Origin: Planctomycetota bacterium
GTDB taxonomy: Bacteria; Planctomycetota; UBA1135; GCA-002748355
Reading direction: 5' to 3'
Length of the DNA stretch: 64,000 bases
Assembly (NCBI GenBank): GCA_002685965.1
Contig: NYZE01000080.1
Coordinates: 12,464 to 76,463, forward strand
Shown: one piece after another, positions 44,744-64,000 of the stretch
Numbering within the stretch: the first letter of the stretch is position 1
Layout of the letters: each line of letters starts with the position of its first letter
Notes under the pieces: model-generated
The model's database searches: none
The model's input: the letters and a program-made list of their open reading frames with translations, nothing else
Told to the model about the DNA's origin: nothing
Translations under genes and position numbers: made by a program

Positions 44744-45717
44744 AGCCAGCCTCCGGCGAGTGCGTCGCGCGCGTGGTATGTGATCAGCATGTCGGCGCCG
44801 GCGCGTTTCACGGCAAACATGTGCTCGCGCGCGAGGTCCTCACGGCGCGCGAGACCTTCGCGCGCCATCAACTCGACGGCCGCGTACTCACCGCTGACCA
44901 GGTAGGCCGCCACCGGGCGATCGACCGCCGCCTTGACGTCGGAGATGACGTCGAGATACGCGAGCGCCGGCTTCACCATGACCATGTCGGCGCCTTCCGC
45001 GATGTCGAGCAGCGCTTCACGCACCGCCTCGCCGCGGTTGCGATAGTCCATCTGGTAGCCCTTGCGGTCCTTCGGGCCTTCGTTCTTGGGCGCCGAGTCG
45101 GCGGCTTCGCGGAAGGGTCCGTAGAAGCTCGACGCGTACTTCGCTGCATAGCTGAGGATGGCACGGTCGCCGAACCCCGCCGTGTCGAGCGCTTCGCGGA
45201 TGGCGCGCACGCGGCCGTCCATCATGTCGGAAGGCGCAATGACGTCGGCGCCGGCCTCAGCGAGCGACACCGCCTGGCGTGCGAGGTGCGGCAGGCTCTC
45301 ATCGTTGGCGACCTTGCCGTCGCGCAGGATGCCACAGTGCCCGTGGTCGGTGTAGGTGCACAGGCACACGTCAGCAATGATGGTCAGGTCGTCCCCGAAC
45401 TGTTTCGCCAGTGCCGTGCAGGCACGGTGAGCTGGTGAGGCCGCGAGCACACCGGCGCTGCCGGTCGCGTCCTTGGCGTCGGTCACGGCGAAGAGCAGCG
45501 TGTGCCGAACTCCGTGCTCAAGGTCGGACTCCACTTGTGCCAGCAGTGGATCGAGGCCCATGCGCGAGATGCCGGGCAGCGCGGCGATCGGCTCGGTGCG
45601 CGTTTCGTCGCCGATCACGAAGTGTGGCTGTATGAGTTCTTCGGCTGCGATGTGTGTCTCGGCAGCCAGTTCGCGTAGCGATGCGGTGCGCCGCAAGCGT
45701 CTCGGGCGATCGGTCAC
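44740..45717 (-). CDS. hemB: Porphobilinogen synthase (delta-aminolevulinate dehydratase), Cys-rich Zn-type site
   Basis: 325 aa with a GTG start overlapping the hemCD stop. The sequence is RPRRLRRT..LR....LIQPHFV...DVCLCTYTDHGHCG...APSDMMDGRV...SYAAKYASSFYGPFREA...YQMD...VKPALAYLD. Confidence 0.92.
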   Translation of the reverse strand: MTDRPRRLRRTASLRELAAETHIAAEELIQPHFVIGDETRTEPIAALPGISRMGLDPLLAQVESDLEHGVRHTLLFAVTDAKDATGSAGVLAASPAHRACTALAKQFGDDLTIIADVCLCTYTDHGHCGILRDGKVANDESLPHLARQAVSLAEAGADVIAPSDMMDGRVRAIREALDTAGFGDRAILSYAAKYASSFYGPFREAADSAPKNEGPKDRKGYQMDYRNRGEAVREALLDIAEGADMVMVKPALAYLDVISDVKAAVDRPVAAYLVSGEYAAVELMAREGLARREDLAREHMFAVKRAGADMLITYHARDALAGGWL

Positions 45718-47288
45718 TGTCGGGCCTCCTTCATCGCCGTGATCAGTGCCCCGGCCGACGGAGTTGCGGCGATAGCATCACAGCGAATGCCGTTCTCTAC
45801 CATCGCCGCTGCGGTCGTCTCCCCTAACGCGAGCCGCTGTCCGTCGTGCTGGGAGCCGCTCGCAGCCCACGCACCCGTGGCTGACGGGGACGAGAACACG
45901 AGCCAGTCGTCGGTGCGAGTGATTGCCGGCTGCTCGATCCGCTCTGTCTGGTAGAGCGGTACTGCATCGACCGCGACGCCGTTCTCGCCGAGCACGCGCT
46001 CGAGATCGCCTTGCCGATCCGCTGCACAGGGGAACAGCACACGGCCGGACGTGATGCCGCTATCAATCAGGAAACGAGCCAGCGTCGCACCGCCGCTCGG
46101 TGGTTGCGGCACACGACACTCGAAGCCGAGTGAACGCAGCGCTGCTGCGGTTGCGGGACCGATCGCGAAGATCGGCGCGTCGACCGGTCCACTCACTTGT
46201 TCCTGGAATCGGGCAACGGCTCGGGCGGACGTGAACGCGATCGCGGCGGCTTGCTCGGTGTGCAGCGCCGCCTCGACCGGGATGGTGCGAGTCATGGCGA
46301 TGGTCTCTACCGTTGCTCCAGCTACACCGAGCGCCTGACCGAGGCGGCCGCCGTTGCCATCCGGACGCAGCAGCGCGACGCGCAGGCCTTCGAGAGGGTC
46401 GCCAACCAACGGACTCAGGTCCGCGGCGAGATCCGCGGCGAGCAGCGTCGGGTCTGTCCCTGTCCGCTCGGTGAAGACGCCGCACCCAGCGTGCACGCGC
46501 CCGAACAGCGATGTGCGCAGCCGATAGTCGTCGCCGTGCGGCGTGCAGAGCGCGCCCAGTGGCATCGAGCAACCTCCGCCCAGCCGGTGCAGTAACTCCC
46601 GCTCGGCGCCGACGCAGCGCGACGTCCCCGGGTGGTGCAGCTTGCGCAAGGCGCCGAGTAGTTTTTCGTCGTCCGCGCGACATTGCACCGCGAGAGCGCC
46701 TTGCCCCGGCGCTGGCAGATGGCGGTCGATGGGCAGCGTCATGCGCGTCAGTCCGCCGAGGTCGAGGTCCAGGCGATCGAGGCCTGCCGCGGCGAGAACG
46801 GTTGCGTCGTAGTCACCGCGGCGCACCCTGTCCACGCGCGTCGGCACGTTGCCGCGGATGTTCGTCAGCACCAGATCGCTCCGTTCCACCAAGAACGCCG
46901 AGCGGCGACGCAGAGATGACGTGCCGACGCGTGCACCGGGCCGGAGCGCCCCGTTCTCGATCCTGGCCGGATTCGCGACGAGCACGTCATTCGCGGCGAT
47001 GCGAGCGGGGATCGCTCCGATGGTGAGGCCTTGAGGATCGTCGACCGGCAGGTCCTTGAGGCTGTGCACCGCCGCGTCGATGCGACCTGCGCGCAATGCT
47101 TCCTCTAGCTCGGCGGTGAAGACACCCTTGCCGCCGATGGTAGGCAGCGGAGAAACGAGGTCACGGTCGCCGCGTGTTTCGATGATCTCGATCTGGTGGT
47201 CGAGGCCGGTTTGTCGCGACAGGGCCTCGCCCACCATGCGGGTTTGCGTCAGGGCGAGGTCACTGCCCCTGCTGCCAAAGGTGATCAT
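45714..47288 (-). CDS. hemC/hemD: Fused hydroxymethylbilane synthase / uroporphyrinogen-III synthase
   Basis: 524 aa. The N-terminal ~300 aa is HemC (ITFGSRGSDLALTQT...IIETRGD...GGKGVFTAELEEALRAGRIDAAVHSLKDLP...GTSSLRR...RGNV.TR). The C-terminal ~220 aa is HemD-like (LRVALLRP...FTSARAV...LVFSSPSA). Confidence 0.88.
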   Translation of the reverse strand: MITFGSRGSDLALTQTRMVGEALSRQTGLDHQIEIIETRGDRDLVSPLPTIGGKGVFTAELEEALRAGRIDAAVHSLKDLPVDDPQGLTIGAIPARIAANDVLVANPARIENGALRPGARVGTSSLRRRSAFLVERSDLVLTNIRGNVPTRVDRVRRGDYDATVLAAAGLDRLDLDLGGLTRMTLPIDRHLPAPGQGALAVQCRADDEKLLGALRKLHHPGTSRCVGAERELLHRLGGGCSMPLGALCTPHGDDYRLRTSLFGRVHAGCGVFTERTGTDPTLLAADLAADLSPLVGDPLEGLRVALLRPDGNGGRLGQALGVAGATVETIAMTRTIPVEAALHTEQAAAIAFTSARAVARFQEQVSGPVDAPIFAIGPATAAALRSLGFECRVPQPPSGGATLARFLIDSGITSGRVLFPCAADRQGDLERVLGENGVAVDAVPLYQTERIEQPAITRTDDWLVFSSPSATGAWAASGSQHDGQRLALGETTAAAMVENGIRCDAIAATPSAGALITAMKEARQ

Positions 47289-48433
47289 CCCGCCGACAGC
47301 AGCTTGACGTCCTTGATGTGCAAGTGCGCATGGCGCTTGGCGGCCCGCAGGACCAGATCGCGGAACAAGTCGCGATCGGTATCGGACAGGTGGCTCAGTT
47401 TGCCGTGCAGCGCCCGGTCGACTTCTGCCAGAGCGTTCTCGACGTGGAGATCGACGAGCTTGCCGATCTCTGCGCGCTTCTCGCTGACTTCCGAGAAGAT
47501 ACGTTCCGCGTGGCCCGGGACTAGCTCTCGTTCGTCGTCCGCGGCTTGCTGACGCCGTGCATTCTCCACCGCCGCGAGACCGGCGACGTCGTCGAGATCG
47601 AGGACGGTCAGCTCAGGGTGCGAGCGAAGGTCATCGGGCAGCACCGAGGGCTGGCTCACGTCGATCAGGACACTGGCCGTGTCCGGGCGCAGCGCCAGCT
47701 TGCCGCCGCGAACGGCGAACAGCACGCCGTCGAGCTCCGGTGGGTCGCTCAAGAAGTCGTCGAGGCCCTGAGCCGTGCCGCCGAAGTGGGCTGCGAGCGC
47801 CTCGGCCCGCGCGCGCGTTCGGTTGACCACGACTGGGTTTCGCACGCCGTGTCGCGTCAGGAACTCGAGCGCTTGGCGGCCTGTTTCACCGGTACCCACG
47901 ACGGCCAGTCGCGCACCCGCCTGCGCCAATCGTCCCGCCGCGACCGAAGCAACCGACGGCTGTCCACCGCACAGGTCACAGCGGCTGCGCAGTTCGCGGG
48001 CGGCAGCGATGACGCGCGTCCAGAGCATGTGCAGACCGCGGCTCAGTAGTCGCGCTTCTTCGGCTTCCTGAAAAGCGCGCCGCACCTGTCCGAGGACCTG
48101 TTCTTCGCCGATGACCATGGACTCGAGCCCGGTTGCGACGCACAGGAGGTGTGCAATCGCGTCGACGTTCTTGTGGCGGTGCAGCGGCACGCCGTGGTCT
48201 GTGCCGAGCACGAGCGCGGCCAGGTCGTCGGGCGCGCCGGCTTTTGTGGGGGCGGGCGCCTCGACGAGGACTTCGAAGCGGTTGCAGGTCTCGATCAGCA
48301 CCGAACCGCTGATCACACCCTCGCGCTGCAGTCGCGCCAGCATGGCGCGGATGGGCTCAGTCCGCACCGTGAGCGCGCGCATACGCGAAGGGGGTGCCAG
48401 GTGGTGGTCGCTGCCGAACATCTCAAGCCGCAT
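47285..48433 (-). CDS. hemA: Glutamyl-tRNA reductase
   Basis: 382 aa. The sequence is ...LIETCNRFEVLVEA (catalytic Cys motif)...SMVIGEEQVLGQVR...LAVVGTGETG... The stop overlaps the hemCD start (ATGA 47285..47288). Confidence 0.9.
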   Translation of the reverse strand: MRLEMFGSDHHLAPPSRMRALTVRTEPIRAMLARLQREGVISGSVLIETCNRFEVLVEAPAPTKAGAPDDLAALVLGTDHGVPLHRHKNVDAIAHLLCVATGLESMVIGEEQVLGQVRRAFQEAEEARLLSRGLHMLWTRVIAAARELRSRCDLCGGQPSVASVAAGRLAQAGARLAVVGTGETGRQALEFLTRHGVRNPVVVNRTRARAEALAAHFGGTAQGLDDFLSDPPELDGVLFAVRGGKLALRPDTASVLIDVSQPSVLPDDLRSHPELTVLDLDDVAGLAAVENARRQQAADDERELVPGHAERIFSEVSEKRAEIGKLVDLHVENALAEVDRALHGKLSHLSDTDRDLFRDLVLRAAKRHAHLHIKDVKLLSAG

Positions 48434-48579: not shown

Positions 48580-49947
48580 ATGGGTTGCCTAGCGCGAGTG
48601 TTTGTCGTCGTCAGTTTGTTCACGGCTCCGGCATCGGCGCAGGCCGACTGGACGCTGCTGACCACGACGACCAAGCCGGGCTCGCGCTTCGGTTGTGCTG
48701 CCGTGTATGAGACGCATCGCCTGCGTTTCCTGATGTTCGGCGGCGGCACGTGGCAGAACCCGTCATTTTATGGTGACACCTGGGGTTTGACTCTGGCCGG
48801 CTGGGTTCAGCTCAGGCCAACCACCAGCCCGTCTGCGCGGGGCGGCCACAGGATGGCATTCGATTCTCTGCGCAATCGCACGGTGTTGTTTGGCGGGACG
48901 AACGGAAACACGGAGACCTGGGAGTGGGATGGGTCGAACTGGTCGCTGATCCCGACGAACCCGACGCCGCCCGGTCGCGCCTTTCACTCGATGTCGTACG
49001 ACCCCGTGCGCAAGGTCGTCGTCATGTTTGCTGGCACGTCGGTGGTGTTGGGCGACATGAACGATACCTGGGAATGGAACGGCACCAGTTGGACTCGCAA
49101 GAAACCGACTGTGAGCCCGCCGCGTCGCTGCTACCAGGGCATGACCTACGATCCGGTCAGCAAGCGTGTGCTGATCCATGGCGGGTTCGATCCAAAGATT
49201 CGTCGGAGCCACCGCGACACTTGGGCGTGGGACGGTGTGAACTGGACTCAGATCGCGACGAACGGTCCGCGTGCCTTCGGCGCCGGTCTTGTCTACGACG
49301 ACCTGCGGCAGCGCGTCGTCCTGCACGGCGGCTATGGGTCGGGTGGCACGACGCACGAGTGGGACGGGAAGGCGTGGACCGTCCGCTTGCCGAAGAACCC
49401 GCCACCGCTCGCTGGAAACGCGGCCTATGCCTACGACCGCGTGCGCCAGCGCGTCGTTCGTTTCGGTGGCGAGGGCAACAACCAGGCCGTGTTTGACACG
49501 ACATGGCTCTACGGCACCAAGGAGGTCGCCACCTACACGGCATACGGGACGGCCTGTGCCAGCAGCGCTGGCACACCGACGCTCAGCGTCGGAGGAGCGC
49601 GGCCGTGGATCGGAGACACCCTCTTCGTCAACCTCTCGGGTGCACCAGCTGGCACGCCGGTGCTGATGTCGTTCGGGTATTCCAACAAGCGTTTCGGCTT
49701 GTTCAAGTTGCCCCTCGACCTGACGCCGATGGGTGCGCCGGGTTGCTCGGTGCTCGCGTCACTCGACTGGCTCAGCGCGGCCGTCACGGATACGGCGGGC
49801 AAGGCTTCGCACCCGATTCCCCTCCCGCTGGCGCTGGGACTCGTAGGGGTGGCGTTCTACAACCAGTGGTTGATCTCTGATCCGAAGAAGAACGCGCTCC
49901 AGCTTGTCACCTCCAACGGAGGCGCGGCGACGATCGGTGTGCGCTGA
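48580..49947 (+). CDS. Secreted Kelch-repeat beta-propeller protein with C-terminal beta-rich tail domain
   Basis: Lies in ORF 48481..49947. The ATG at 48580 is preceded by GAGGAG and gives the signal MGCLARVFVVVSLFTAPASAQA. A repeated ~50-aa unit occurs at least 5 times (P..R.gh.m.yD..r.r.vlFGG......DTWEWdG..W). Confidence 0.8.
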   Translation: MGCLARVFVVVSLFTAPASAQADWTLLTTTTKPGSRFGCAAVYETHRLRFLMFGGGTWQNPSFYGDTWGLTLAGWVQLRPTTSPSARGGHRMAFDSLRNRTVLFGGTNGNTETWEWDGSNWSLIPTNPTPPGRAFHSMSYDPVRKVVVMFAGTSVVLGDMNDTWEWNGTSWTRKKPTVSPPRRCYQGMTYDPVSKRVLIHGGFDPKIRRSHRDTWAWDGVNWTQIATNGPRAFGAGLVYDDLRQRVVLHGGYGSGGTTHEWDGKAWTVRLPKNPPPLAGNAAYAYDRVRQRVVRFGGEGNNQAVFDTTWLYGTKEVATYTAYGTACASSAGTPTLSVGGARPWIGDTLFVNLSGAPAGTPVLMSFGYSNKRFGLFKLPLDLTPMGAPGCSVLASLDWLSAAVTDTAGKASHPIPLPLALGLVGVAFYNQWLISDPKKNALQLVTSNGGAATIGVR

Positions 49948-50346: not shown

Positions 50347-50862
50347 TTGCTCACTGCACAGGCGGTCTTCTATTACATGGCGGCTGCCAGCGTAGCGAGT
50401 GGGCTACTCGCGGTGACCCGCAGGAACCCGGTCCAGAGCATGCTCTGGGTGCTGGCGCTGTTCCTCCATGTCGCGGGCATCTTCCTGCTGCTGAGCGCGG
50501 AGTTCCTGGCGGCGGTTCAGGTGATCGTCTACGCGGGCGCCATCCTGATCTTCTACCTCTTCGTCGTCATGCTGCTCGACCTCCCGGACGAGGAGGCCAA
50601 GCCGCGTTTCGGGAAGCACTGGCCGTTCGCCGCCTGCGTCGGAGTCGCCACTACGCTGCTGGCCTGGCTCGCTCAGGGCGCGGTCGCGCCGGCGGCAGGA
50701 CGCTTGCCGGACACGGGGGCAGCATTCACGGGCAGCGTCGCCGAGCTCGGCAAGGCGCTCTTCGGACCGTTCGCGTTGCCCTTCGAGCTTGCGTCCCTCG
50801 TGCTGCTCGCGGCGATCGTCGGCGCCGTCGTGCTCGCCAGAAAGAGGGGAGAACGCACATGA
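50347..50862 (+). CDS. nuoJ: NADH-quinone oxidoreductase subunit J
   Basis: 171 aa with a TTG start. The sequence is VFYYMAAASVASGLLAVTRRNPVQSMLWVLALFLHVAGIFLLLSAEFLAAVQVIVYAGAILIFYLFVVMLL. Confidence 0.88.
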   Translation: MLTAQAVFYYMAAASVASGLLAVTRRNPVQSMLWVLALFLHVAGIFLLLSAEFLAAVQVIVYAGAILIFYLFVVMLLDLPDEEAKPRFGKHWPFAACVGVATTLLAWLAQGAVAPAAGRLPDTGAAFTGSVAELGKALFGPFALPFELASLVLLAAIVGAVVLARKRGERT

Positions 50863-51164
50863 TCGTGCCCATGAGCACGGTCCTGGCGGTAAGCGCCATC
50901 CTGTTCGGGATCGGCGTCTTCGGCTTCCTCGCCAGACGCAACATCATCCTCATGCTCGTCTCGACCGAGGTGATGCTGAACGCGGTCAACCTCAGTCTGG
51001 CGGGATTCAGTCAACACCTCGACGACCCGCGGGGTCAGGTGCTCGCGCTGTTCGTGATCGCGGTCGCGGCTGCAGAAGCCGCCGTTGGGCTCGGAATCGT
51101 CATCGCGCTGAACCGCAACAAGCCCGGGGCAGGCGTCGGCGACCTGACTGATCTCAAACAGTGA
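50859..51164 (+). CDS. nuoK: NADH-quinone oxidoreductase subunit K
   Basis: 101 aa. The sequence is ...FGIGVFGFLARRNIILMLVSTEVMLNAVNLSLAGF...FVIAVAAAEAAVGLGIVIAL. An ATGA overlap joins it to nuoJ. Confidence 0.9.
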   Translation: MIVPMSTVLAVSAILFGIGVFGFLARRNIILMLVSTEVMLNAVNLSLAGFSQHLDDPRGQVLALFVIAVAAAEAAVGLGIVIALNRNKPGAGVGDLTDLKQ

Positions 51165-52636
51165 CCTTCTCACTGGTGCCACTGCTCGCTGTGCTCGTCC
51201 CGGCCTTGGGGGCAGCCCTCATTGCGTGCACGGGTCAGCGCCGCGCCAACCTCAGGGAGTTCTGGTCCATCGCGGCGGGCGTCGCGTTGCTGGCGCTCGT
51301 CGTGAGCATGATTCCGGAAGTCCGCGCCGGCAACGCAGTCGGAGCGGTGCTGTTCCAGATCCTGCCAGGACTGTCACTGGCGTTTCGCGTGGATGCCTTC
51401 GGCCTGCTCTTCGCCTCGGGCGCGTCGCTCTTGTGGATCCTGACGTCATTTTACTCGATCGGCTACATGCGCACGCTCGAGGAGCACGCGCAGACGCGGT
51501 ACTTCTCGTGCTTCGCCCTGGCGCTATCCGCGACGATCGGTGTCGCGTTCTCGGCCAACCTGTTCACGCTATTCCTGTTCTACGAAGCCCTGACCCTGGT
51601 CACGTACCCGCTCGTCGGTCACAAGGAGACTGCCGAGGCGAAAGCGGGCGCCCGCAAGTACGTCATCTACCTGCTCGGCGCGGCGAAGGTGTTTCTTCTC
51701 GCCGCGATCATCCTGGTCTACGACCTGACGGGGACGCTCGACTTCCAGAGCGGCGGGATCCTGTCGGCGGCGCATGTCGCCGAGCACCCGACGCTGCTCT
51801 TCGTGATCTTCGGGCTGTTTCTGTTCGGCTTCGCCAAGAACGCAATCATGCCGCTGCACGGCTGGCTGCCGGCCGCCATGGTCGCGCCGACGCCCGTGAG
51901 CGCGCTGCTGCACGCGGTGGCGGTGGTCAAGACGGGGGTCTTCTCGACGCTGCGGGTGTTCCTGTTCATCTTCGGCCCGACCGCGATGCGCAGCATCGGC
52001 GCCGACCAACTGGCCCTGATCGCGGCCTCGGTGACGATCCTGGTTGCGTCTCTGCTGGCGCTTGGGCAGGACAACCTGAAGGCGCGGCTCGCCTTCTCCA
52101 CGGTGAGCCAACTCTCCTATATCATCCTCGGTGCCGCGCTGTTGAATGCGAGCGGCGTGCTCGGCGGAACCGCGCACATCACCAACCACGCAGTGTCGAA
52201 GATCACCCTCTTCCTCTGCGCCGGCTCGATCTACGCGTCGACGCACAAGACTGAGATCAGCCAGCTGTCAGGGTTGGCCAAACGCATGCCGTGGACGATG
52301 GCGGCGTTCGCGATCGCGTCGCTGAGCATCATCGGCATTCCGCTCACGAGCGGCTTCGTGTCCAAGTGGTACATCGCGCTCGGCACGGTGGACAGCCAGA
52401 GCTTCGTTGTGCTGGGTGTGCTCCTGACCAGTTCGCTGCTCAGCGCGGCCTATCTCGGCCCGATCATCTACAAGGCCTACTTCGAAGAGCCACCGCCGCT
52501 CGCGGCAGGCGAGGCCGACGAAGTGCGCGAGGTGCCTTGGATCGTCGCGCCGTTGACGATCAGCGCTGGCCTCAGCCTGCTCTTCGGTGTCATGCCGGGA
52601 CCCGTGCTGGATCTGGCGGGGAGGGCGCTGCAGTGA
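51161..52636 (+). CDS. Additional antiporter-like subunit (MrpD/NuoL-core type, Proton_antipo_M family), no C-terminal extension
   Basis: 491 aa with a GTG start overlapping the nuoK stop (GTGA). It carries the canonical family motif MPLHGWLPAAMVAPTPVSALLHAVAVVKTGVF and a TM5-like Glu (FLFYEALTLVTYPLVGH). About 14 hydrophobic segments are present. Confidence 0.85.
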   Translation: MTFSLVPLLAVLVPALGAALIACTGQRRANLREFWSIAAGVALLALVVSMIPEVRAGNAVGAVLFQILPGLSLAFRVDAFGLLFASGASLLWILTSFYSIGYMRTLEEHAQTRYFSCFALALSATIGVAFSANLFTLFLFYEALTLVTYPLVGHKETAEAKAGARKYVIYLLGAAKVFLLAAIILVYDLTGTLDFQSGGILSAAHVAEHPTLLFVIFGLFLFGFAKNAIMPLHGWLPAAMVAPTPVSALLHAVAVVKTGVFSTLRVFLFIFGPTAMRSIGADQLALIAASVTILVASLLALGQDNLKARLAFSTVSQLSYIILGAALLNASGVLGGTAHITNHAVSKITLFLCAGSIYASTHKTEISQLSGLAKRMPWTMAAFAIASLSIIGIPLTSGFVSKWYIALGTVDSQSFVVLGVLLTSSLLSAAYLGPIIYKAYFEEPPPLAAGEADEVREVPWIVAPLTISAGLSLLFGVMPGPVLDLAGRALQ

Positions 52637-52893
52637 ACTTCCTCGAGCGGCAACTCGAAGACCCTGTTCGCTTCGCGCGGCTCAAGCGCTGGGGCCTGAT
52701 CTTCCTGGCCCTGACACTCGTCGCCGAGATCGTTCTTCCGCTGATCTTCGGCAGCCACGGACACTTCTCGTTCGAAGACTTCCCTGGATGGGGCTCGATC
52801 TACGGGTTCGTCTCGTGCGCCGTGATCATCATCGTCTCCAAGGTGATCGGCAAGCTGTGGCTCATGCGCCGCGAGGATCACTATGAGTCCTGA
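52633..52893 (+). CDS. Small 2-TM membrane protein embedded in the nuo operon
   Basis: The GTG at 52633 overlaps the preceding stop (GTGA). The product is (M)NFLERQLEDPVRFARLKRWGLIFLALTLVAEIVLPLIFG...GWGSIYGFVSCAVIIIVSKVIGKLWLMRREDHYES. It appears in the ORF track only as the tail of ORF 52291..52893. Confidence 0.55.
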   Translation: MNFLERQLEDPVRFARLKRWGLIFLALTLVAEIVLPLIFGSHGHFSFEDFPGWGSIYGFVSCAVIIIVSKVIGKLWLMRREDHYES

Positions 52894-54649
52894 GTGGATC
52901 CATCCAGGACTGATCCTGATCGTCGGCGCGTGGCTCTTGCCGTTCCTCAAGGGCAACGCCAAGCGCGTCGCGATGCTCGCCGTGCCCACCGCGGCGCTGA
53001 TCGACTGTTTCCTCATGTCGGCCGGGACGCACGGCGTCGTCAGCGTGTGGGGATACGAGGTCGTGTTCGGGCGCGTCGACAGCCTGAGTCTCGTGTTCGG
53101 CTACGTGTTCTCGATCATGGCGCTCATTGGCATGGTCTACGCGCTGCACGTCGACGACAACGCCCAGCACGTCAGCGCCCTCACGTATGCCGGTGCCGCG
53201 CTCGGCGTGACGTTCGCAGGAGACTTCCTGTCTCTCTACGTCTTCTGGGAGGTGATGGCCGTGTCCTCGGCGCTCCTGGTCTGGCTGCACCGCGAGGAGG
53301 CCTCGGTCGCCGCTGGCTTCCGCTACCTGATGACGCACGTCTTCGGCGGGCTCTTGCTGCTCGCCGGCATCGTGCTCCTGTGGCGCGAGACCGGGTCGTT
53401 CGCGTTCGATGATCTGAAAGCGTTCTCGGGCAGCGCGGCGTGGTACCTGATCCTCGCTGCGTTCCTGCTCAACGCCGCGGTGCCGCCCCTGGGCGCATGG
53501 CTGCCGGACGCCTACCCCGCGGCCACGGTCACGGGCGCGGTGTTCATGACCGCGTTCACGACCAAGTCGGCAGTTTACGTCCTGATCCGTGGCTTCCCGG
53601 GCACGGAGCTCTTGATCTGGCTCGGCGCGATCATGGCGCTCTACGGCGTCGTCTACGCCGTGCTCGAGAACGATGCGCGTCGCCTGCTCGCGTACCACAT
53701 CATTAGCCAGGTCGGCTACATGGTGTGCGGCGTCGGCATCGGCACCGCGCTTGCAATCAACGGCGCGTGCGCGCACGCCTTCGCCCACATCCTCTACAAG
53801 GCGCTTCTCTTCATGGGTGCAGGTGCCGTCATGCAGGTCACCGGGCTGCGCAAGCTGAGCGACATGGGCGGGCTCTACAAGACCATGCCGCTCACGGTGT
53901 TCCTCTACATGATCGGTGCGTTCGCCATCTCGGCCGTGCCGTTGTTCAGTGGCTTCGTCAGCAAGTCCATGATCGTGTCGGCTTCGGCGGAATCGCACAT
54001 GACGGCGATCTTCCTGATGCTGACGCTCGCATCCGCCGGCACCTTCCTGCACACGGGGCTCAAGCTCCCCTACTACATGTTCTTCGGCAAGGACTCAGGA
54101 GTCCGAGCCAAGGAGCCGCCAAAGAACATGCTGGCAGCGATGGCGATCGCTGCCGTCGCGTGCACGATCATCGGCGTCTTTCCGGGACTCCTCTACCAGG
54201 CGTTGCCAAGAGCAGTGGAGTACGCCCCGTACACGCTGCAACACGTAACCGCCACGACGGGCATGCTGGGCTTCACGGCACTCGGTTTCTTTCTGCTGCT
54301 CAAGCACCTCGATCCCAAGCTCACGATCAGCCTGGACACGGATTGGATCTACCGCCGCGGCGCCGCTCTGTTGACATGGGTGGCACGGAAGCCTCTGACC
54401 GTTCTCGAGTACGGCTTCGTTGGACAGATCTATGAGTTCGTGTTTCGTCGTCCCGTGCTCGGCGCGGCGGGTCTTCTGCGCGGTTTCGACAGCTTCGTCG
54501 TCGATGGCCTCATCGTCGGCGTGGGACGGTTGACGCTGCGACTGAACCAGCTTCTGCGCACCGCGATCAGCGGCCACGCGCAGCACTACGGGTTGGTCAT
54601 GGCGGCGGGGATCCTGCTGCTCCTGGCCCTGGCATTGATCGCCGTATGA
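52883..54649 (+). CDS. nuoL: Divergent NuoL-like antiporter subunit with C-terminal lateral-helix/anchor extension
   Basis: 588 aa. The core motif is divergent (LGAWLPDAYPAATVTGAVFMTAFTTKSAVYVLIR) and a TM5-like Glu is present (FWEVMAVSSALLVW). The C-terminal ~130 aa (...DTDWIYRRGAALLTWVARKPL...FDSFVVDGLIVGVGRLTLRLNQLLRTAISGHAQHYGLVMAAGILLLLALAL) resembles the amphipathic helix plus final TM of NuoL/MrpA. Confidence 0.75.
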   Translation: MSPEWIHPGLILIVGAWLLPFLKGNAKRVAMLAVPTAALIDCFLMSAGTHGVVSVWGYEVVFGRVDSLSLVFGYVFSIMALIGMVYALHVDDNAQHVSALTYAGAALGVTFAGDFLSLYVFWEVMAVSSALLVWLHREEASVAAGFRYLMTHVFGGLLLLAGIVLLWRETGSFAFDDLKAFSGSAAWYLILAAFLLNAAVPPLGAWLPDAYPAATVTGAVFMTAFTTKSAVYVLIRGFPGTELLIWLGAIMALYGVVYAVLENDARRLLAYHIISQVGYMVCGVGIGTALAINGACAHAFAHILYKALLFMGAGAVMQVTGLRKLSDMGGLYKTMPLTVFLYMIGAFAISAVPLFSGFVSKSMIVSASAESHMTAIFLMLTLASAGTFLHTGLKLPYYMFFGKDSGVRAKEPPKNMLAAMAIAAVACTIIGVFPGLLYQALPRAVEYAPYTLQHVTATTGMLGFTALGFFLLLKHLDPKLTISLDTDWIYRRGAALLTWVARKPLTVLEYGFVGQIYEFVFRRPVLGAAGLLRGFDSFVVDGLIVGVGRLTLRLNQLLRTAISGHAQHYGLVMAAGILLLLALALIAV

Positions 54650-56112
54650 GTGACTTTCCCGTACTGACCGTCACGACCTTCCTGCCGATGGCGGGTGCAG
54701 CCCTGGTCATGCTGCTCGGTCGCGATCGGTTGGCGCGCTGGATCGCGCTCGTGACCACGCTCGCCACGCTAGGCGTCTCGGTGCCGCTCTGCCTGAGCTT
54801 CGACAAGTCCAAGAGTGCGCTGCAGTTCGTCGAGGTGCACGAGTGGATCCCGAGCTGGAACATCGCCTACGGCATGGGCGTGGACGGCATCAGCATTCCG
54901 TTCATTTTCCTCGCCGCGCTTCTGACTATCCTCTGTGTCGGCGTTTCGTGGACTGCCGTCCGCACGAGAACGAGCGAGTTCTACGCCGCGCTCCTGGTCT
55001 CCGAGACGGCGATGATCGGGCTCTTCGCAGCGTCCAACCTGTTCCTGTTCTTCGTATTCTGGGAACTCATGGTCATCCCGATGTTCCTGCTCATCGGTGT
55101 GTGGGGAGGTCCCGGGCGCGTCTACGCAGCCGTCAAGTTCCTCATCTTCACGCTCGCGGGAAGCGTGTTGATGCTTGTCGGCATGATCGTGCTGCACAAC
55201 ACGTGCGGCACGTTGGACTTCAAAGCGCTCGCGGCGGCCAAGGACAGCTTGCCGGCCGCGCACCAGGCCTGGCTCTTCGCCGCGTTCCTAGCCGCCTTTG
55301 CGGTCAAGGTGCCGATGTTCCCGGTGCACACCTGGCTGCCGAACGCGCACACCGAAGCGCCGACGGCAGGCAGCGTCATCCTGGCGGGGATCCTGCTCAA
55401 GATGGGCGCGTACGGGTTCCTGCGTGTCTCACTGCCGATCTTGCCGGAGGGCGTGCAGGCCTTCCTGCTACCGATGCTCGTCATCTCGGTCGTGGCCATC
55501 GTCTACGGCGCTTATGTGACTCTGGTGCAGACGGACATGAAGCGCCTGATCGCGTTCTCGAGCGTGAGCCACATGGGTTTCGTGACGCTTGGCATCTTCA
55601 CGCTCGAACAAAGCGGCGTCGAAGGCGCGATCCTGCAGATGATCAACCACGGGATCATCTCCGCGGCGCTGTTCTTGTGCGTCGGCATGATCTACGAGCG
55701 CACGCACACGCGCGAAATCAAGGATTACGGGGGAGTCGGCAAGGTCGCACCGATCTACGCCACCATGCTGGCGTTCTTCTGTCTCGCGTCCGCCGGCTTC
55801 CCCGGTTTGAACTCGTTCATCGGCGAGGTGCTGATCATCGGCGGTGCGTTCAAGACCCAGAGCTGGCTCGGCGCGATGGCGGTCTGGGGCGTCGCGCTCG
55901 GGACGACATACCTGGTCTGGCTCTACTACCGCGTCGTGATGGGCAAGACCAACGAGGGGCTACGAGGGCTGAAGCTTGAGCTCAACGCGCGTGAGATTGC
56001 CACGCTGGTGCCCCTCGTGGCGTTGGCTGTATGTCTCGGCCTCTATCCCGAAGTCGTGCTGTCCTATCTGCACGTGCCGGTCGCCGAACTCCTGGCGGGA
56101 GTCAAGCCATGA
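54646..56112 (+). CDS. nuoM: NADH-quinone oxidoreductase subunit M
   Basis: 488 aa. The sequence is ...WNIAYGMGVDGISIPFIFL...FFVFWELMVIPMFLLIGVWGG...PVHTWLPNAHTEAPTAGSVILAGILLKMGAYGF...FSSVSHMGF. Confidence 0.9.
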   Translation: MSDFPVLTVTTFLPMAGAALVMLLGRDRLARWIALVTTLATLGVSVPLCLSFDKSKSALQFVEVHEWIPSWNIAYGMGVDGISIPFIFLAALLTILCVGVSWTAVRTRTSEFYAALLVSETAMIGLFAASNLFLFFVFWELMVIPMFLLIGVWGGPGRVYAAVKFLIFTLAGSVLMLVGMIVLHNTCGTLDFKALAAAKDSLPAAHQAWLFAAFLAAFAVKVPMFPVHTWLPNAHTEAPTAGSVILAGILLKMGAYGFLRVSLPILPEGVQAFLLPMLVISVVAIVYGAYVTLVQTDMKRLIAFSSVSHMGFVTLGIFTLEQSGVEGAILQMINHGIISAALFLCVGMIYERTHTREIKDYGGVGKVAPIYATMLAFFCLASAGFPGLNSFIGEVLIIGGAFKTQSWLGAMAVWGVALGTTYLVWLYYRVVMGKTNEGLRGLKLELNAREIATLVPLVALAVCLGLYPEVVLSYLHVPVAELLAGVKP

Positions 56113-57557
56113 TCGGCACCGTCGTCACACAGAAGGCGAGCGGCCCGGTTCTCGATGACCTCGTCCTCGTCGTCCCGGAGCTGATCTTCGTCGGAACGGC
56201 GTTGCTGCTGATCCTGATCGCCCGGCGCATCCGCAAGACGCCGGTGGCGATCGTCCTGACCGTCGCCGCTGCCGTCGCCGCAGCACTGAGCGCTGTTTGG
56301 TTCGCCCCAGCCGAACCCACCACCGGGTTCGCCGGCATGATCACCGTGGACGGCTATGCCACGTTCTTCAGAGTGCTCATTGCCGCGACCGTGGGCATGA
56401 CGACGCTGCTCTCGGTGCGCAGCATCGTCGGCGAAGAGGTGCCACGCGGCGACTACCACGCGCTGCTCCTGCTGGCGGCAACCGGGATGATGTTCTCGGC
56501 ATCTGCGATCGATCTACTCACGTTGTATCTGGGCCTCGAGCTCACGACGCTGTGCGCAATCGTCCTGGTCGGCATCAAGGTGGACCGACCGTTGGCGAAC
56601 GAAGCCGCGATCAAATACTTTCTGCTCGCGTCCTTCGCCTCGGCGTTGCTGCTCTACGGAATCGCGCTGACCTATGGTGCAACGGGCGCCACGGACTTCG
56701 CGGGCATCGCGGCGGCGCTCTCAAAGGAAGGTCTAGCGAGCGCCCCGTTCCTGCTCGTTCCCCTCGGACTCGTGACCGCAGGGCTCGCGTTCAAGATCGC
56801 CGCCGTGCCGTTCCACGCCTGGGCGCCGGACGCCTACCAGGGTGCCTCGGCGCCGGTCGCCGCGTTCCTCGCCGCCGGCTCCAAGGCGGCGGGACTCGCC
56901 GCGCTCGGGCGCGTTTGCCTCGTGGCGTTCGGCTCTGAGACCGAGGTCCTCTCGCTCTTGCTCGCTGGGCTCGCCGCGCTCTCGATCATCGCCGGCAGCG
57001 TGCTTGCTCTGTCGCAGACCGATATGAAGCGGCTCCTCGCCTACTCCTCGATCGCGCACGCAGGCTACGCAGTCCTCGGCCTCCTGGCCGGCACCGGCGA
57101 AGGCGTCTCGGCGATGATGACCTACGCCTTCTTCTACGTGTTCATGACGCTTGGAGCATTCGGTGTCGTGATCGCTCTGGGCAAGCGCGGCGAAGAGCTC
57201 GACCGCTACCAAGGTTTGGCTTCGCAGCGCCCCGGAATGGCAGCGCTGATGCTGCTCTTCCTGTTGTCGCTGACCGGCATCCCCCCCACCGCCGGGTTCG
57301 CCGCCAAGTTCGTGATCATCCAGAGCGCCGTGCGCGCCGACCACATCGCGCTGGCGATCCTCGCCGTGGTCTGCAGTGTGATCTCTGCCTTTATCTACAT
57401 GCGCGTCGTGGTGCTCATGTACATGAAGGATCCGCAAGAGGCCGCACCATCGCGTGTTCCGATCGCCGTGACTGTGGCGATCGCGCTCGCGGCGCTGGTC
57501 ACTTTGGTTGGCGGGATCTCACCTGGCAGCCTCACTGCTTGGGCGGTGTCGCCTTGA
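56109..57557 (+). CDS. nuoN: NADH-quinone oxidoreductase subunit N
   Basis: Lies in ORF 56031..57557. The ATG at 56109 overlaps the nuoM stop (ATGA). The sequence is ...LYLGLELTTLCAIVLVG...AIKYFLLASFASALLLYG...PFHAWAPDAYQGASAPVAAFLAAGSKAAG...YSSIAHAGY. Confidence 0.88.
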   Translation: MIGTVVTQKASGPVLDDLVLVVPELIFVGTALLLILIARRIRKTPVAIVLTVAAAVAAALSAVWFAPAEPTTGFAGMITVDGYATFFRVLIAATVGMTTLLSVRSIVGEEVPRGDYHALLLLAATGMMFSASAIDLLTLYLGLELTTLCAIVLVGIKVDRPLANEAAIKYFLLASFASALLLYGIALTYGATGATDFAGIAAALSKEGLASAPFLLVPLGLVTAGLAFKIAAVPFHAWAPDAYQGASAPVAAFLAAGSKAAGLAALGRVCLVAFGSETEVLSLLLAGLAALSIIAGSVLALSQTDMKRLLAYSSIAHAGYAVLGLLAGTGEGVSAMMTYAFFYVFMTLGAFGVVIALGKRGEELDRYQGLASQRPGMAALMLLFLLSLTGIPPTAGFAAKFVIIQSAVRADHIALAILAVVCSVISAFIYMRVVVLMYMKDPQEAAPSRVPIAVTVAIALAALVTLVGGISPGSLTAWAVSP

Positions 57558-57597: not shown

Positions 57598-57951
57598 ATG
57601 AGCGAGTACATCGGAGTCGCCGTCATGTTCGTCATGGCAGGAGGCATCGCTGCCTTGATGGTGTTGCTCGCTTCGACGTTGGGAAAGAAGAACCCCACAC
57701 CGGAGAAGCTCGCGCCATTCGAGTGCGGCCAGGAACCGTTCTCGCTGCCGATGGGACGGCTGGCGGTCAAGTTCTACCTCACGGCCATCCTCTTTATTCT
57801 GTTCGACGTTGAGCTCGTCTTCCTCTACCCCTGGGCCGTCGTCTTCGGCGAATTGGGAACCCTCGGGCTGATCGAGATGGGCATCTTCCTGGGCGTCCTG
57901 ATGATCGGATTCGTCTACGCGTGGGACAACGGCGCCCTGGACTGGAAGTAA
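57598..57951 (+). CDS. nuoA: NADH-quinone oxidoreductase subunit A
   Basis: Lies in ORF 57508..57951, starting at the ATG at 57598. The sequence is ...[45 protein letters not shown]. Confidence 0.9.
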
Positions 57952-57971: not shown

Positions 57972-58472
57972 ATGGCACACGAGAACTCATTCCTGACCAG
58001 CAAGCTCAACGACGCCATCGGCTGGGCGCGAAAGTATTCGATCTTCCAGTACCCGTTCGTTACGGCGTGCTGCGGCATGGAGTACATGGCGGCTGCGTGC
58101 TCGCACTACGACGTCGATCGCTTTGGCGCCGGCCTGCCGCGGTTCTCTCCGCGCCAGGCCGACGTGCTCTTCGTCGTCGGGACGATCAGCCACAAGATCG
58201 CGCCGGTCCTGCGCACCATCTACGACCAGATGGCAGAGCCCAAGTGGGTCGTCGCGTTCGGCGTCTGCACGTGCACGGGCGGCTTCTTCGACAACTACGC
58301 AACCGTGATGGGGATCGACACGATTCTGCCAGTCGACACCTACATCCCGGGGTGTCCACCGCGTCCAGAGATGGTCCTCGACGGTCTGATGAAGCTGCAG
58401 GACAAGATCCAGCTCCAGCACTCGACCGGGCAACACCCGACCCGCGATCCCCGACCGGACTTCGACGTATGA
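57972..58472 (+). CDS. nuoB: NADH-quinone oxidoreductase subunit B
   Basis: Lies in ORF 57921..58472, starting at the ATG at 57972. The sequence is ...[15 protein letters not shown]...DRFG...[17 protein letters not shown]....[21 protein letters not shown]...[13 protein letters not shown]. Confidence 0.92.
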
Positions 58473-59080
58473 ACAACTCCGGAATGATCGAGGCCGTTTC
58501 GGCGAAGTTCGCGGACGGCGTGCTGGCTTCGCACGTGTTCCGGGGCGACGCGACGGTAGTCGTCCGTCGCGAGTCGTTGTTCGACGTGGCGCGATTCGTC
58601 AAGGACGACCCAGCGCTGTCGATGAACTTTCTCATGGACCTGTCGGCTGTGGACTACTCGACTTTCGGCAAGGGTCCAACGCCCGCGTTCTTCGCGTCGT
58701 CGGGCGTGGCGGTGAAGCCGTCGACTCAGATTCCGGACGAAGATCCGTGGCCTGGGCCCGGCTACGTTTCTGAGAAGAGGGGCGCTGATCCGGAAGAGTG
58801 GCGGTTCACGGTCGTGTACCACTTCTATTCGACGACGCACAAGCACCGGCTGCGCTTGGTGGTTCCTCTCACCGAGGATGACGCCGAGGTAGACACCGTG
58901 ACATCGCTGTGGGCCGGCGCCAACTGGCTCGAGCGCGAGGCGTGGGACATGTTCGGCATCGTCTTCCGTGGGCACCCCGACCCGAGACGCATCCTCCTGT
59001 ACGCCGAGTTCGAGGGGCACCCGCTCCGCAAGGACTACCCCGTCAACAAGCGCCAGCCCCTGATCGGGCCGCTGAACTGA
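58469..59080 (+). CDS. nuoC: NADH-quinone oxidoreductase subunit C
   Basis: Lies in ORF 58067..59080. The ATG at 58469 overlaps the nuoB stop (ATGA). The sequence is ...[10 protein letters not shown]...[18 protein letters not shown]...[37 protein letters not shown]...GHPLRKDYP. Confidence 0.9.
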
Positions 59081-59097: not shown

Positions 59098-60470
59098 ATG
59101 GAAACGACGCCAAAGCCGGAGACGATGACCGCCGAGGTCCATGCCAGTGGACTCGAGACGCGGGACATGCTGCTCAACATCGGTCCTGCGCATCCAGCGA
59201 TGCACGGGATCATCCGCATCGTCGCCAAGCTCGACGGCGAGCAGATCGAAGAGGCGGACGTCGAGATCGGCTACTTGCACCGGGGCTTCGAGAAGATGGC
59301 CGAGCAGGTCGACTACAACGGCGTGATGCCGTACACGGACCGGCTCAACTACGTCTCCCCTCTGATCAACAACGTCGGCTACTGCATGGCGGTGGAGAAG
59401 ATGCTCGGGATCACGGTTCCCGAGCGCTGCCAGTACGTCCGCGTCATCGTTTCGGAGATCTCGCGGATCACCGACCACCTCACGTGCGTCGGGGCGACCG
59501 CGATGGAGCTGGGCGCTTTCACCGTGTTCCTCTACATGATCAAAGCGCGCGAGTTCCTCTGGGAGCTCGTCGAGAAGGTCACCGGCGCGCGCCTCACCGT
59601 CTCCTACTGCCGCGTCGGAGGAGTGAAGGGTGACCTGCCCGACGACTTCGCCGAGCCGTGCAAGAAGGCCTTCGCAGAAACCCGCAAGGTCCTTGAGGAG
59701 TCGGACCAGCTGCTGACCCGCAACCGCATCTTCACCGACCGCATGGCTGGCACCGGTGTGATCTCTGCCGAGGACGCGATCTCGTACGGCATCACGGGTC
59801 CATTCCTGCGCGCCACCGGCGCTGACTTCGACGTGCGCAAGGACTCTCCCTACGCCGTCTATGACCGGCTGGACTTCGACGTGCCGGTCGGCACGACGGG
59901 CGACAACATGGATCGCTATCTCGTCCGCATGGAGGAGATGCAGCAGTCCATGAAGATCGTCGAGCAAGCGCTGCGCGACATGCCGCCTGGTCCGGTGCTG
60001 GTCAACCCGGAGACGGGGCGAGAGATTCCCGCGGCGGAGATGGTCGACCTCGCCAAGATGGGTGACATCAATGCCTTCTCGGGTGGATGCGCGGTCGCCG
60101 GTCCGACGCTCGAGGGCTCGGGTCGCGCGCATCAGCCATCCATAGCCACCGACGAGAAGCGCGTCTTCCTGCCGGCCAAGGAAGACGCTTACGGCAACAT
60201 CGAAGGGCTCATGAACCAGTTCAAGCTGGTCATGTTCGGCCATGGCATTCGCCCTCCGAACGGAGAGGTCTACTTCCCGGTGGAAGGCGCCAACGGCGAG
60301 CTCGGGTTCTATGTCGTCAGCGACGGAGCGGCGCACGCGTATCGCGTCCGGGTGCGGCCGCCATGTTTCGCGATCATGTCGGCGCTTGAGCACATGCTCA
60401 CAGGCGACATGATCGCCGACATGATCCCGACCTTCGGTTCAGTCAACATGATCGGCGGGGAGCTCGACAG

Positions 60471-60474
<4 letters not shown>
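59098..60474 (+). CDS. nuoD: NADH-quinone oxidoreductase subunit D
   Basis: Lies in ORF 58909..60474, starting at the ATG at 59098. The sequence is ...MLLNIGPAHPAMHGIIRIVAKLDGEQIEEADVEIGYLHRGFEKMAE...TDRLNYVSP..NN.GY...GEVYFPVEGANGELGFYVVSDG...YRVRVRPPCF. Confidence 0.92.
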
Positions 60475-62260
<1,786 letters not shown>

Positions 62261-62273
<13 letters not shown>

Positions 62274-63850: not shown

Positions 63851-64000
63851 CCGAGCTCCTGATCACGAAGGTCATCCTCGCCGGCTTCGTCGTTTTCGCG
63901 GTGCTGAACCTCGCAGGGCTCCACACCTGGGTGGAGCGCAAGCAATCCGCCCTGATCCAGGATCGGATCGGCGCCAACCGCGCCAGCATCTTCGGCTTCC
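63847..64000 (+). CDS. nuoH: NADH-quinone oxidoreductase subunit H (5' part; continues beyond the window)
   Basis: The ATG at 63847 overlaps the nuoG stop (ATGA). The product MTELLITKVILAGFVVFAVLNLAGLHTWVERKQSALIQDRIGANRASIFGF is a typical NuoH N-terminus (..ERK..a..Q.R.GPN). Confidence 0.85.
   Translation, partial: MTELLITKVILAGFVVFAVLNLAGLHTWVERKQSALIQDRIGANRASIFGF

Follow-up and report, generated by a model that had tools for sequence, protein, structure and literature searches.

Models of respiratory complex I and of the Mrp antiporters rest on a coupling point, Glu(TM5)/Lys(TM7)...Lys(TM12), that is repeated in each antiporter-like subunit (TM, transmembrane helix), and on a fixed number of subunits. 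Green complex I, described in 2016 (Degli Esposti & Martinez-Romero) and summarised in PMC7415380, is according to that summary encoded by a second complex I operon with a rearranged gene order, which is present in ~70 Alphaproteobacteria and upregulated in symbiosis. In the definition quoted in PMC9040806, two MrpD-like subunits replace NuoL, and a figure legend in PMC4967309 gives its NuoG additional 4Fe-4S clusters. The literature counts four pumping subunits for this enzyme, and a stoichiometry of five protons has already been proposed. A related MrpD-like pair, said to be closest to that of rhizobial green complex I, occurs in Complex_I_3 of 'Ca. Manganitrophaceae' (Yu et al. 2022, PMC9040806), and the 'group 3' Mrp clusters have extra mrpA/D-like genes downstream of mrpD (e.g. 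in 'Ca. Nitrospira alkalitolerans', PMC7784846). Here, we have analysed a 64-kb stretch of contig NYZE01000080.1 from a Planctomycetota bacterium (the window), and show that three genes, which we call X1, X2 and X3, occupy the place of nuoL within a complete nuo operon.

Green complex I is a natural and widespread enzyme with one extra subunit, an obligatory small partner and one subunit without the 'essential' TM7 lysine. It bears on how stoichiometry relates to subunit number, on whether the TM7 lysine is dispensable, and on the reach of a single lateral helix. The window contributes no more than another member to the family, and the idea of four pumps has already been published; our additions are the operon order in 80 loci, the X2 family, the sharing of the triad with Mrp-type antiporters, the loss of the TM7 lysine in X3 and the length of the X3 linker.

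X1, X2 and X3 occupy the place of nuoL

The nuo operon runs from position 50347 to the end of the window, and all coordinates are on the plus strand unless stated (Table 1). Its genes are tightly packed into a single operon in the order nuoJ-K-X1-X2-X3-M-N-A-B-C-D-EF-G-H. As read from the sequence, the nuoK/X1 and X1/X2 junctions are both GTGA, X2 and X3 overlap by 11 nucleotides (nt), and the X3/nuoM and nuoM/nuoN junctions are both ATGA. A GGAGG motif lies 8 nt 5' of the GTG start of X2, and a GAGGA upstream of the ATG of X3. An initial annotation of this DNA had described three tightly coupled open reading frames of 491, 86 and 588 amino acids (aa) between nuoK and nuoM, and its coordinates and junctions proved exact. 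The X1-X2-X3 module occupies nuoL's place inside a complete nuo translation unit.

Profile searches, which the initial annotation had proposed as a check, identified antiporter cores in X1 and X3, and neither protein passed a NuoL model. The Pfam domain Proton_antipo_M is full-length in X1 (E-value 2e-57, with a weak match to Proton_antipo_N), X3 (4e-46), NuoM and NuoN, and is absent from X2. Only the 488-aa and 482-aa proteins exceed the curated NCBIfam cut-offs for NuoM and NuoN, and no protein of the operon reaches that of either NuoL model: X1 and X3 score 199.3 and 162.7 bits with TIGR01974 (cut-off 407.5), and 207.6 and 177.4 bits with NF005141 (cut-off 556). The best NCBIfam model for X1 is NF006236, 'putative monovalent cation/H+ antiporter subunit D', at 625 bits and under its cut-off of 663, whereas X3 matches NF009310, 'Na(+)/H(+) antiporter subunit D', over its full length at 734 bits, above the cut-off of 564. 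There are no further antiporter-like genes in the rest of the 64-kb window, and no MrpB, MrpE, MrpF, MrpG or MrpA C-terminal domain in the operon or the window region examined.

The locus is a marine member of the green class

The initial annotation had not recognised this arrangement as characterised, but the same gene order is found on the symbiotic plasmid of Sinorhizobium meliloti and has been named green complex I (PMC7415380). By tblastn of plasmids, X3 homologues of ~59% identity are found on Sinorhizobium and Rhizobium symbiotic plasmids. The order on S. meliloti pSym is nuoJ-K, a 'monovalent cation/H+ antiporter subunit D family' protein (487 aa), a hypothetical protein (84 aa), a 'Na(+)/H(+) antiporter subunit D' (586 aa), then nuoM-N-A-B-C-D-E-F-G. 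The best tblastn matches of 13 window genes are collinear with this locus (L007) at 33-57% identity, and the three proteins of the triad are 55% (X1), 42% (X2) and 57% (X3) identical to their S. meliloti counterparts. Like the rhizobial operon, to which its subunits are orthologous, the window has two MrpD-like subunits (X1 and X3) between nuoK and nuoM and no NuoL, begins with J-K and places A-B-C-D-E-F-G after N. Judged by gene content and orthology, the locus is a green-type complex I operon and a new marine member of this named class.

The likeness to the rhizobial enzyme extends to the asparagine at the TM7 position of X3 and to the lack of a 26-aa insertion in the lateral helix, both of which are discussed below. 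The two operons differ in that the rhizobial one has separate nuoE and nuoF genes and a NuoG of 853 aa, whereas nuoE and nuoF of the window are fused (600 aa) and its NuoG has 529 aa. The hosts differ as well, the rhizobial locus being on a plasmid of a nodulating alphaproteobacterium and the window belonging to a marine metagenome-assembled genome (MAG) labelled Planctomycetes, whose closest relatives at this locus (70-78% identity) are in Acidobacteriota, Planctomycetota and Gemmatimonadota and not in rhizobia. One collinear tblastn match spans the nuoE-nuoF fusion in nearly all of the 80 related loci introduced below, in which the fusion is apparently common.

Complex_I_3 likewise has two MrpD-like subunits instead of NuoL, but with its second NuoM it reaches five pumping subunits, and the lateral helix of its MrpD2 contains an insertion of 26 aa (PMC9040806), while the window has a single NuoM and no such insertion. 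The 2M complex I of Nitrospira and others (Chadwick et al. 2018) has the same predicted outcome as the window, in that an antiporter-like subunit is added as a fourth and a fifth proton has been proposed. There, the extra subunit is a duplicated NuoM beside a true NuoL, whose lateral helix is extended by an insertion of ~26 aa; in the window, NuoL is replaced by two non-NuoL paralogues and a small protein, only one protein passes TIGR01972, and the linker between TM15 and TM16 of X3 is ~96 aa against 80-88 aa in canonical NuoL proteins. X3 shares TM15, the lateral helix and TM16 with canonical NuoL/ND5, and X1 shares the TM8 His and Lys and the TM11 H-x3-H-x3-K with the N-terminal domain of MrpA, but neither unites both sets of features and both lie outside the NuoL clade. 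A stand-alone Mrp antiporter would have MrpB/E/F/G and the MrpA C-terminal domain, which are missing from the operon and the window region examined but present beside the triad in two other loci (L089 and L093).

X1 and X3 form separate old clades

A neighbour-joining tree was built with E. coli NuoL, NuoM, NuoN, HyfB, HyfD and HyfF, Dinoroseobacter MrpA and MrpD, and other relatives. X1 and X3 form clades of their own, separate from each other, with bootstrap values of 94% and 88%, respectively, and each takes in its S. meliloti counterpart. Both lie outside the NuoL (94%), NuoM (88%), NuoN (80%) and MrpD (69%) clades. The placement among the subfamilies that the initial annotation had hoped for was obtained only in this part, since the nodes among the subfamilies have bootstrap values below 50%; 'MrpD-like' thus serves as a label, and no sister relationship is demonstrated by it.

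X1 and X3 are ~25% identical to each other. That both are full-length cores and not a split nuoL, as claimed in the initial annotation, agrees with their Pfam matches, their low mutual identity and their separate clades. Two complete 14-TM cores in separate old clades rule out a split nuoL and, on the same grounds, a recent duplication of nuoM.

The layout is common beyond rhizobia

An NCBI protein from a marine MAG, 'Planctomycetes bacterium', has the same sequence as X2, and identical X3 sequences are found on TARA and other marine metagenome contigs. A scan with one genome per species identified close X3 relatives in 269 genomes, of which the best 80, with 67-78% X3 identity, were taken as the set of related loci (L008-L087). 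These belong to Acidobacteriota (Bryobacterales, Vicinamibacteria, Thermoanaerobaculia and Terriglobia), Planctomycetota, Gemmatimonadota and Nitrospirota. The synteny around K-X1-X2-X3-M, which the initial annotation had put forward for a survey, is preserved throughout: all 80 loci have J-K-X1-X2-X3-M-N-A-B-C-D-EF-G in this order, as far as their contigs reach. The layout is common and far wider than rhizobia. Such a spread is not shown in the literature we searched, in which the 2016 paper on green complex I is represented second-hand. The operon is apparently the complex I, or one isozyme, of many soil and marine Acidobacteriota and Planctomycetota, so that its energetics matter for abundant uncultured groups.

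Compared with the window, MAGs of this set that are assigned to different phyla (Acidobacteriota, Planctomycetota and Gemmatimonadota) show 70-85% identity over the whole operon. This likeness suggests horizontal transfer, very slow evolution or mis-binned contigs. Alternative orders were also observed: in L060, nuoA and nuoB are upstream on the opposite strand, and in L096 (2-4908) the operon ends with X1-X2-X3, placed after a NuoN-like gene.

X1 has the full set of charged residues and X3 lacks the TM7 lysine

Residue positions were assigned by alignment to E. coli NuoL, NuoM and NuoN, followed by column counts over ~80 orthologues. In X1, E142 (TM5), K226 (TM7), H251 and K257 (TM8), H339, H343 and K347 (TM11) and K402 (TM12) are retained in 79-80 of 80 orthologues. 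The His and Lys of TM8 and the H-x3-H-x3-K of TM11 are MrpA-like; a TM8 His and Lys pairing has been described for MrpA by Steiner and Sazanov (PMC7419157). With this full set of charged residues, X1 is predicted to be a functional proton channel, and the initial annotation of X1 as a canonical subunit without a C-terminal extension holds. In NuoM, E140, K221, K252, H335 and E394 are conserved. We also observed that X1 has a lysine in TM6 (K176, window 51686-51688) in 79 of 80 sequences, aligned to Asp178 of NuoL. In NuoL, Asp178 is the acidic residue that pairs with the TM7 Lys, so that the coupling site of X1 has the reverse charge.

X3 differs. Its E123 (TM5), K228 (TM8), H298, H302 and K306 (TM11) and K361 (TM12) are invariant in 82 of 82 sequences, and the position of the TM7 lysine is occupied by an equally invariant asparagine, Asn197, also in the rhizobial and Mrp-type members. 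In HMMER alignments, Asn197 stands opposite the TM7 lysine of four solved homologues, MrpD (K219), MbsH', NdhF and MbhH; this lysine is present in every other antiporter-like subunit we compared, and X3 alone has Asn. Of the canonical set (Glu in TM5 with Lys in TM7, Lys or His in TM8, and Lys or Glu in TM12), X1 is complete and X3 fails at the TM7 lysine only. The TM7 lysine, K229 in NuoL (PMC4938563), has been called 'absolutely conserved, essential for activity' by Steiner and Sazanov, and the coupling point they propose consists of this lysine, the Glu of TM5 and the TM12 Lys of the neighbouring subunit (PMC7419157). As far as alignments can tell, the coupling point of X3 is conserved yet non-canonical, and this is the most unusual feature of the locus.

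The C-terminus of X3 reaches the end of the NuoL models in one stretch (residues 64-584 against 79-629 of 630 in TIGR01974, and up to 611 of 615 in NF005141), and X3 aligns to the solved NuoL chains 3rko_L up to residue 611, 4he8_L up to 603 and 8e9g_L up to 624. For the segment FDSFVVDGLIVGVG...SGHAQHYG, the posterior probability of its alignment to cyanobacterial NdhF is high, and the matched part of NdhF (6hum_F 604-647) is the lateral helix and TM16. The C-terminal fragment of 146 aa, searched alone, found no match in the PDB, so that the homology with NuoL rests on the full-length alignments. The NuoL-like C-terminus attributed to X3 in the initial annotation is thus borne out by the alignments to the NuoL models and NdhF. 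By hydropathy, TM15 is at 455-473 and TM16 at 570-588, leaving a linker of ~96 aa; X3 of S. meliloti has a linker of ~92 aa, and canonical NuoL proteins have shorter ones, with 80 aa in E. coli and 87-88 aa in two others. The PDB holds no structure of a close homologue of X3, the best match being MrpD (E 4e-37).

X2 belongs to a large unannotated family

X2 has hydrophobic segments at residues ~20-40 and 53-77, in agreement with the two TM helices assigned to it in the initial annotation. Because basic residues cluster at both termini, it is likely to form a hairpin with the N- and C-termini inside. X2 matches no Pfam or NCBIfam model, its profile gave only chance matches to PDB structures (E 0.27 or worse), and none of its 120 closest relatives has a Pfam domain. 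The family is large: its relatives fall into 671 clusters at 90% identity, and clustering at 50% gives 780 representatives (E 1e-3 or better), the best 150 of which are mostly 70-130 aa long. Across the related green-type loci, X2 is 52-74% identical. Invariant in this close set are an F45-x-F47-E48 motif, G54, Y57, G58, S61, C62, S69, K70, G73, K74, E81 and Y84, and E32 in TM1 is near-invariant; G58, Y84, K70, E81, G73 and C62 are still 83-95% conserved in 122 diverse representatives. We infer that X2 serves the triad at an interface or in assembly. No convincing natural fusion of X1 with X2 or of X2 with X3 was found among the 150 X2 representatives. One metagenome protein of 282 aa (P0311) has the C-terminal part of X1 joined to an X2-like end and looks like a frameshift or read-through artefact.

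The triad is found outside nuo operons

Six distant X2 homologues were looked up, one of which (P0349) is on a contig of 883 nt without neighbours. In all five contexts with visible neighbours, the X2 homologue is located between orthologues of X1 and X3, with orthology assessed by BLAST. Two of the five are Mrp-type operons of the order MrpE-F-G-MbhD-MbhE-MnhB-MrpC-MrpD-X1-X2-X3 (L089; L093/L094). That X2 is flanked by X1 and X3 in both nuo and Mrp-type settings suggests that X1-X2-X3 is a portable three-gene module. The Mrp-type members L089 and L093 pair together in both the X1 and the X3 trees, which we read as co-inheritance of the triad. In both settings the triad takes the position of the distal subunit, that is, of the MrpA N-terminal domain or of NuoL.

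Compared with the window, these group 3 Mrp-type clusters have the orthologues in the same order (51-56% identical for X1 and 48-53% for X3, plus an X2), and their X3 has the Asn; there, however, the triad follows MrpE-F-G-MbhD-MbhE-MnhB-MrpC-MrpD with no redox module, whereas in the window it lies within a 14-subunit nuo operon. On the metagenome contig L093 (1-13399; also L094), nuoJ-K-L-M, with a NuoL of 650 aa and a NuoM of 526 aa, is directly followed by the whole Mrp-type cluster with X1-X2-X3 and then by a NuoN-like gene (473 aa). This places a canonical NuoL and the triad in one gene string, which could be a larger hybrid or a simple insertion. The cyanobacterial NdhD5-Slr2008-NdhD6 may be the same triad. 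For slr2006-slr2013, only the Mrp-like nature is documented.

It is conceivable, though we would not bet on it, that the triad is a self-contained, horizontally portable 'double-headed' distal module with a non-canonical coupling point, capping either an Mrp-type antiporter, where it would replace the MrpA N-terminal domain, or complex I, where it would replace NuoL. In such a module, the intramembrane Glu/Asp and Lys of X2, or the TM12 Lys of X1, would complete the coupling point of X3 and possibly form a cation site. This would be a novel kind of wiring between antiporter-like subunits, of which the literature we searched has no description.

Proposed assembly and alternative explanations

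We propose that the triad replaces NuoL in a complete green-type complex I, the membrane arm of which is predicted to have four antiporter-like subunits. Given the observed gene content, translational coupling, residue conservation, cross-phylum synteny and rhizobial orthology, we put the probability of this reading at about 0.8. NuoN, NuoM, X1 and X3 would then join the NuoA/H/J/K channel in the arm. X1 would be a 14-TM antiporter-like subunit and proton channel; X2 would be a 2-TM protein with both termini in the cytoplasm and conserved charged residues within the membrane; X3 would be the second antiporter-like subunit and would supply a NuoL-type TM15, lateral helix and TM16 clamp. With four such subunits, the arm could bring the stoichiometry up to ~5 H+ per 2 e-; alternatively, a larger potential gap could be overcome when the enzyme runs in reverse. 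The proposal is supported by the Mrp-type operons, in which the triad adjoins MrpC and MrpD, the homologues of NuoK and NuoN/M. The initial annotation had spoken of an addition to complex I: its four antiporter-like subunits stand, but the locus is better described as one in which NuoL has been replaced by a pre-existing portable triad that also exists in Mrp-type operons. Of the extra pumping module it had envisaged, the four full cores are present, and a fully canonical fourth pump is not established, as X3 has no TM7 lysine.

Several observations weigh against the replacement of NuoL by a pumping triad. With its TM7 lysine replaced by Asn197, X3 may not pump canonically. The X3 linker is only ~8-16 aa longer than that of NuoL and has no insertion of ~26 aa, which has elsewhere been the argument for a lateral helix spanning an extra subunit (PMC9040806); without it, the lateral helix of X3 probably spans about two antiporter-like subunits. 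The AlphaFold2 model of X3, from an alignment of 30 sequences, has a mean pLDDT (predicted local distance difference test) of 50 and a predicted template modelling (pTM) score of 0.45 and is too poor for geometry; its low-confidence helices are at 487-502, 510-561 and 567-587. The PDB and the literature searched hold no structure or biochemistry of any green complex I. Green complex I is expected to coexist with a standard 14-gene nuo operon in one genome, and the 64-kb window, which covers part of the genome, has no second nuo gene set.

In the proposed arm, the distal subunit would be either X3, in the order N-M-X1-X3, or X1, which would then be unclamped, in the order N-M-X3-X1. We weakly favour N-M-X1-X3, because X1 would give the TM12 Glu of NuoM a canonical Glu/Lys pair, because the TM12 Lys of X1 could complement the Lys-less Glu of X3, and because in the Mrp-type operons a helix of NuoL length would extend across X1 and MrpD as far as MrpC, just as that of NuoL spans M and N.

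The lost lysine also invites a different view of X3, in which it would be mainly a structural donor of the lateral helix or a modified coupling element, and complex I would retain ~4 H+ per 2 e-. In other words, X1 pumps and X3 clamps, and the job of NuoL is split over two full-length paralogues. The invariant asparagine at a position reported as essential for activity speaks for this, as does the division of NuoL/MrpA-like features, X1 holding the weak Proton_antipo_N match, the TM8 His and the TM11 H-x3-H-x3-K, and X3 alone the lateral helix. However, the other charged residues of the X3 core, Glu in TM5, Lys in TM8, both His and the Lys in TM11 and Lys in TM12, are invariant, which argues for a functional hydrophilic axis and not a decayed scaffold, and current models send protons via the lysines of TM8 and TM12 and not via that of TM7 (PMC7419157). 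On balance we consider a mainly structural X3 rather unlikely.

Descent from an Mrp-type antiporter could instead mean that the triad brings translocation or exchange of Na+ (or K+) to complex I, which we judge improbable. Orthologous triads do exist inside Mrp-type operons, the 'group 3' Mrp clusters have their extra mrpA/D-like genes past mrpD, and the Asn and Glu at the coupling point of X3, together with the intramembrane acidic and basic residues of X2, might in principle coordinate a cation. As the Mrp structure shows, though, the Na+ path runs via the MrpA C-terminal domain, MrpF, MrpG, MrpC and MrpE and not via the antiporter-like subunits (PMC7419157), and none of these is in the operon; the NCBI name of the X3 family, 'Na(+)/H(+) antiporter subunit D', points to sodium but serves as a label in annotation and does not denote a tested function. 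Least probable by far, in our view, is that X1-X2-X3 are co-transcribed with nuo but form a separate Mrp-like complex, leaving a Nuo complex without a NuoL-type subunit or with a NuoL encoded elsewhere, although the triad does exist outside nuo operons and a 64-kb window cannot show a nuoL elsewhere in the genome. Against such a complex, nuoK and nuoM flank the triad with overlapping codons, and this position is fixed in 80 of 80 loci from four or more phyla and in rhizobia as well. The operon would otherwise be without the lateral-helix subunit that every known complex I has, and there are no genes for MrpB, E, F or G nearby. Even in the Mrp-type operons, the triad accompanies MrpC and MrpD, which as homologues of NuoK and NuoN provide the same platform as in the nuo operon.

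Operon coordinates and neighbouring genes

The features of the operon are listed in Table 1. Several of the genes were assigned by Pfam on a contig identical to the window (locus L001).

Table 1. Features of the green-type nuo operon, with positions in the 64-kb window
Feature	Position	Strand	Length (aa)	Assignment
nuoJ	50347-50862	+	171	First gene of the operon; Pfam Oxidored_q3, E 2e-38
nuoK	50859-51164	+	101	Pfam Oxidored_q2, E 2e-27; NCBIfam NF004320, 103.5 bits (cut-off 57)
X1	51161-52636	+	491	Antiporter-like core only, no lateral helix; 'MrpD1' of green complex I
X2	52633-52893	+	86	Two predicted TM helices; unannotated conserved family
X3	52883-54649	+	588	Antiporter-like, with predicted TM15, lateral helix and TM16; 'MrpD2' of green complex I
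X3 residues ~485-588	54336-54649	+		Predicted lateral amphipathic helix region and TM16 anchor
nuoM	54646-56112	+	488	TIGR01972, 587 bits (cut-off 263.8)
nuoN	56109-57557	+	482	From the ATG overlapping the nuoM stop, in agreement with the L001 gene call; TIGR01770, 393 bits (cut-off 332.6)
nuoA	57598-57951	+	117	Pfam Oxidored_q4, E 5e-36
nuoB	57972-58472	+	166	Pfam Oxidored_q6; TIGR01957, 200 bits (cut-off 142.7)
nuoC	58469-59080	+	203	Complex1_30kDa (via identical contig L001)
nuoD	59098-60474	+	458	Complex1_49kDa (via identical contig L001)
nuoE-nuoF fusion	60471-62273	+	600	2Fe-2S_thioredx, Complex1_51K, SLBB and NADH_4Fe-4S on one product
nuoG	62261-63850	+	529	Short form; Fer2_4, NADH-G_4Fe-4S_3, Fer4_Nqo3, Molybdopterin
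nuoH start	63847-64000	+		Leaves the window; NADHdh gene after nuoG on identical contig L001

About 400 nt of non-coding sequence precede nuoJ. Directly upstream of the operon is a divergent haem biosynthesis cluster (window 43526-48433, minus strand), in which Pfam matches on the identical contig identify a glutamyl-tRNA reductase, a porphobilinogen deaminase/uroporphyrinogen synthase fusion, an aminolaevulinic acid (ALA) dehydratase and an aminotransferase, followed by URO-D. Between this cluster and nuoJ, a gene at 48580-49947 on the plus strand encodes a Kelch/beta-propeller repeat protein of 455 aa with a hydrophobic N-terminus.

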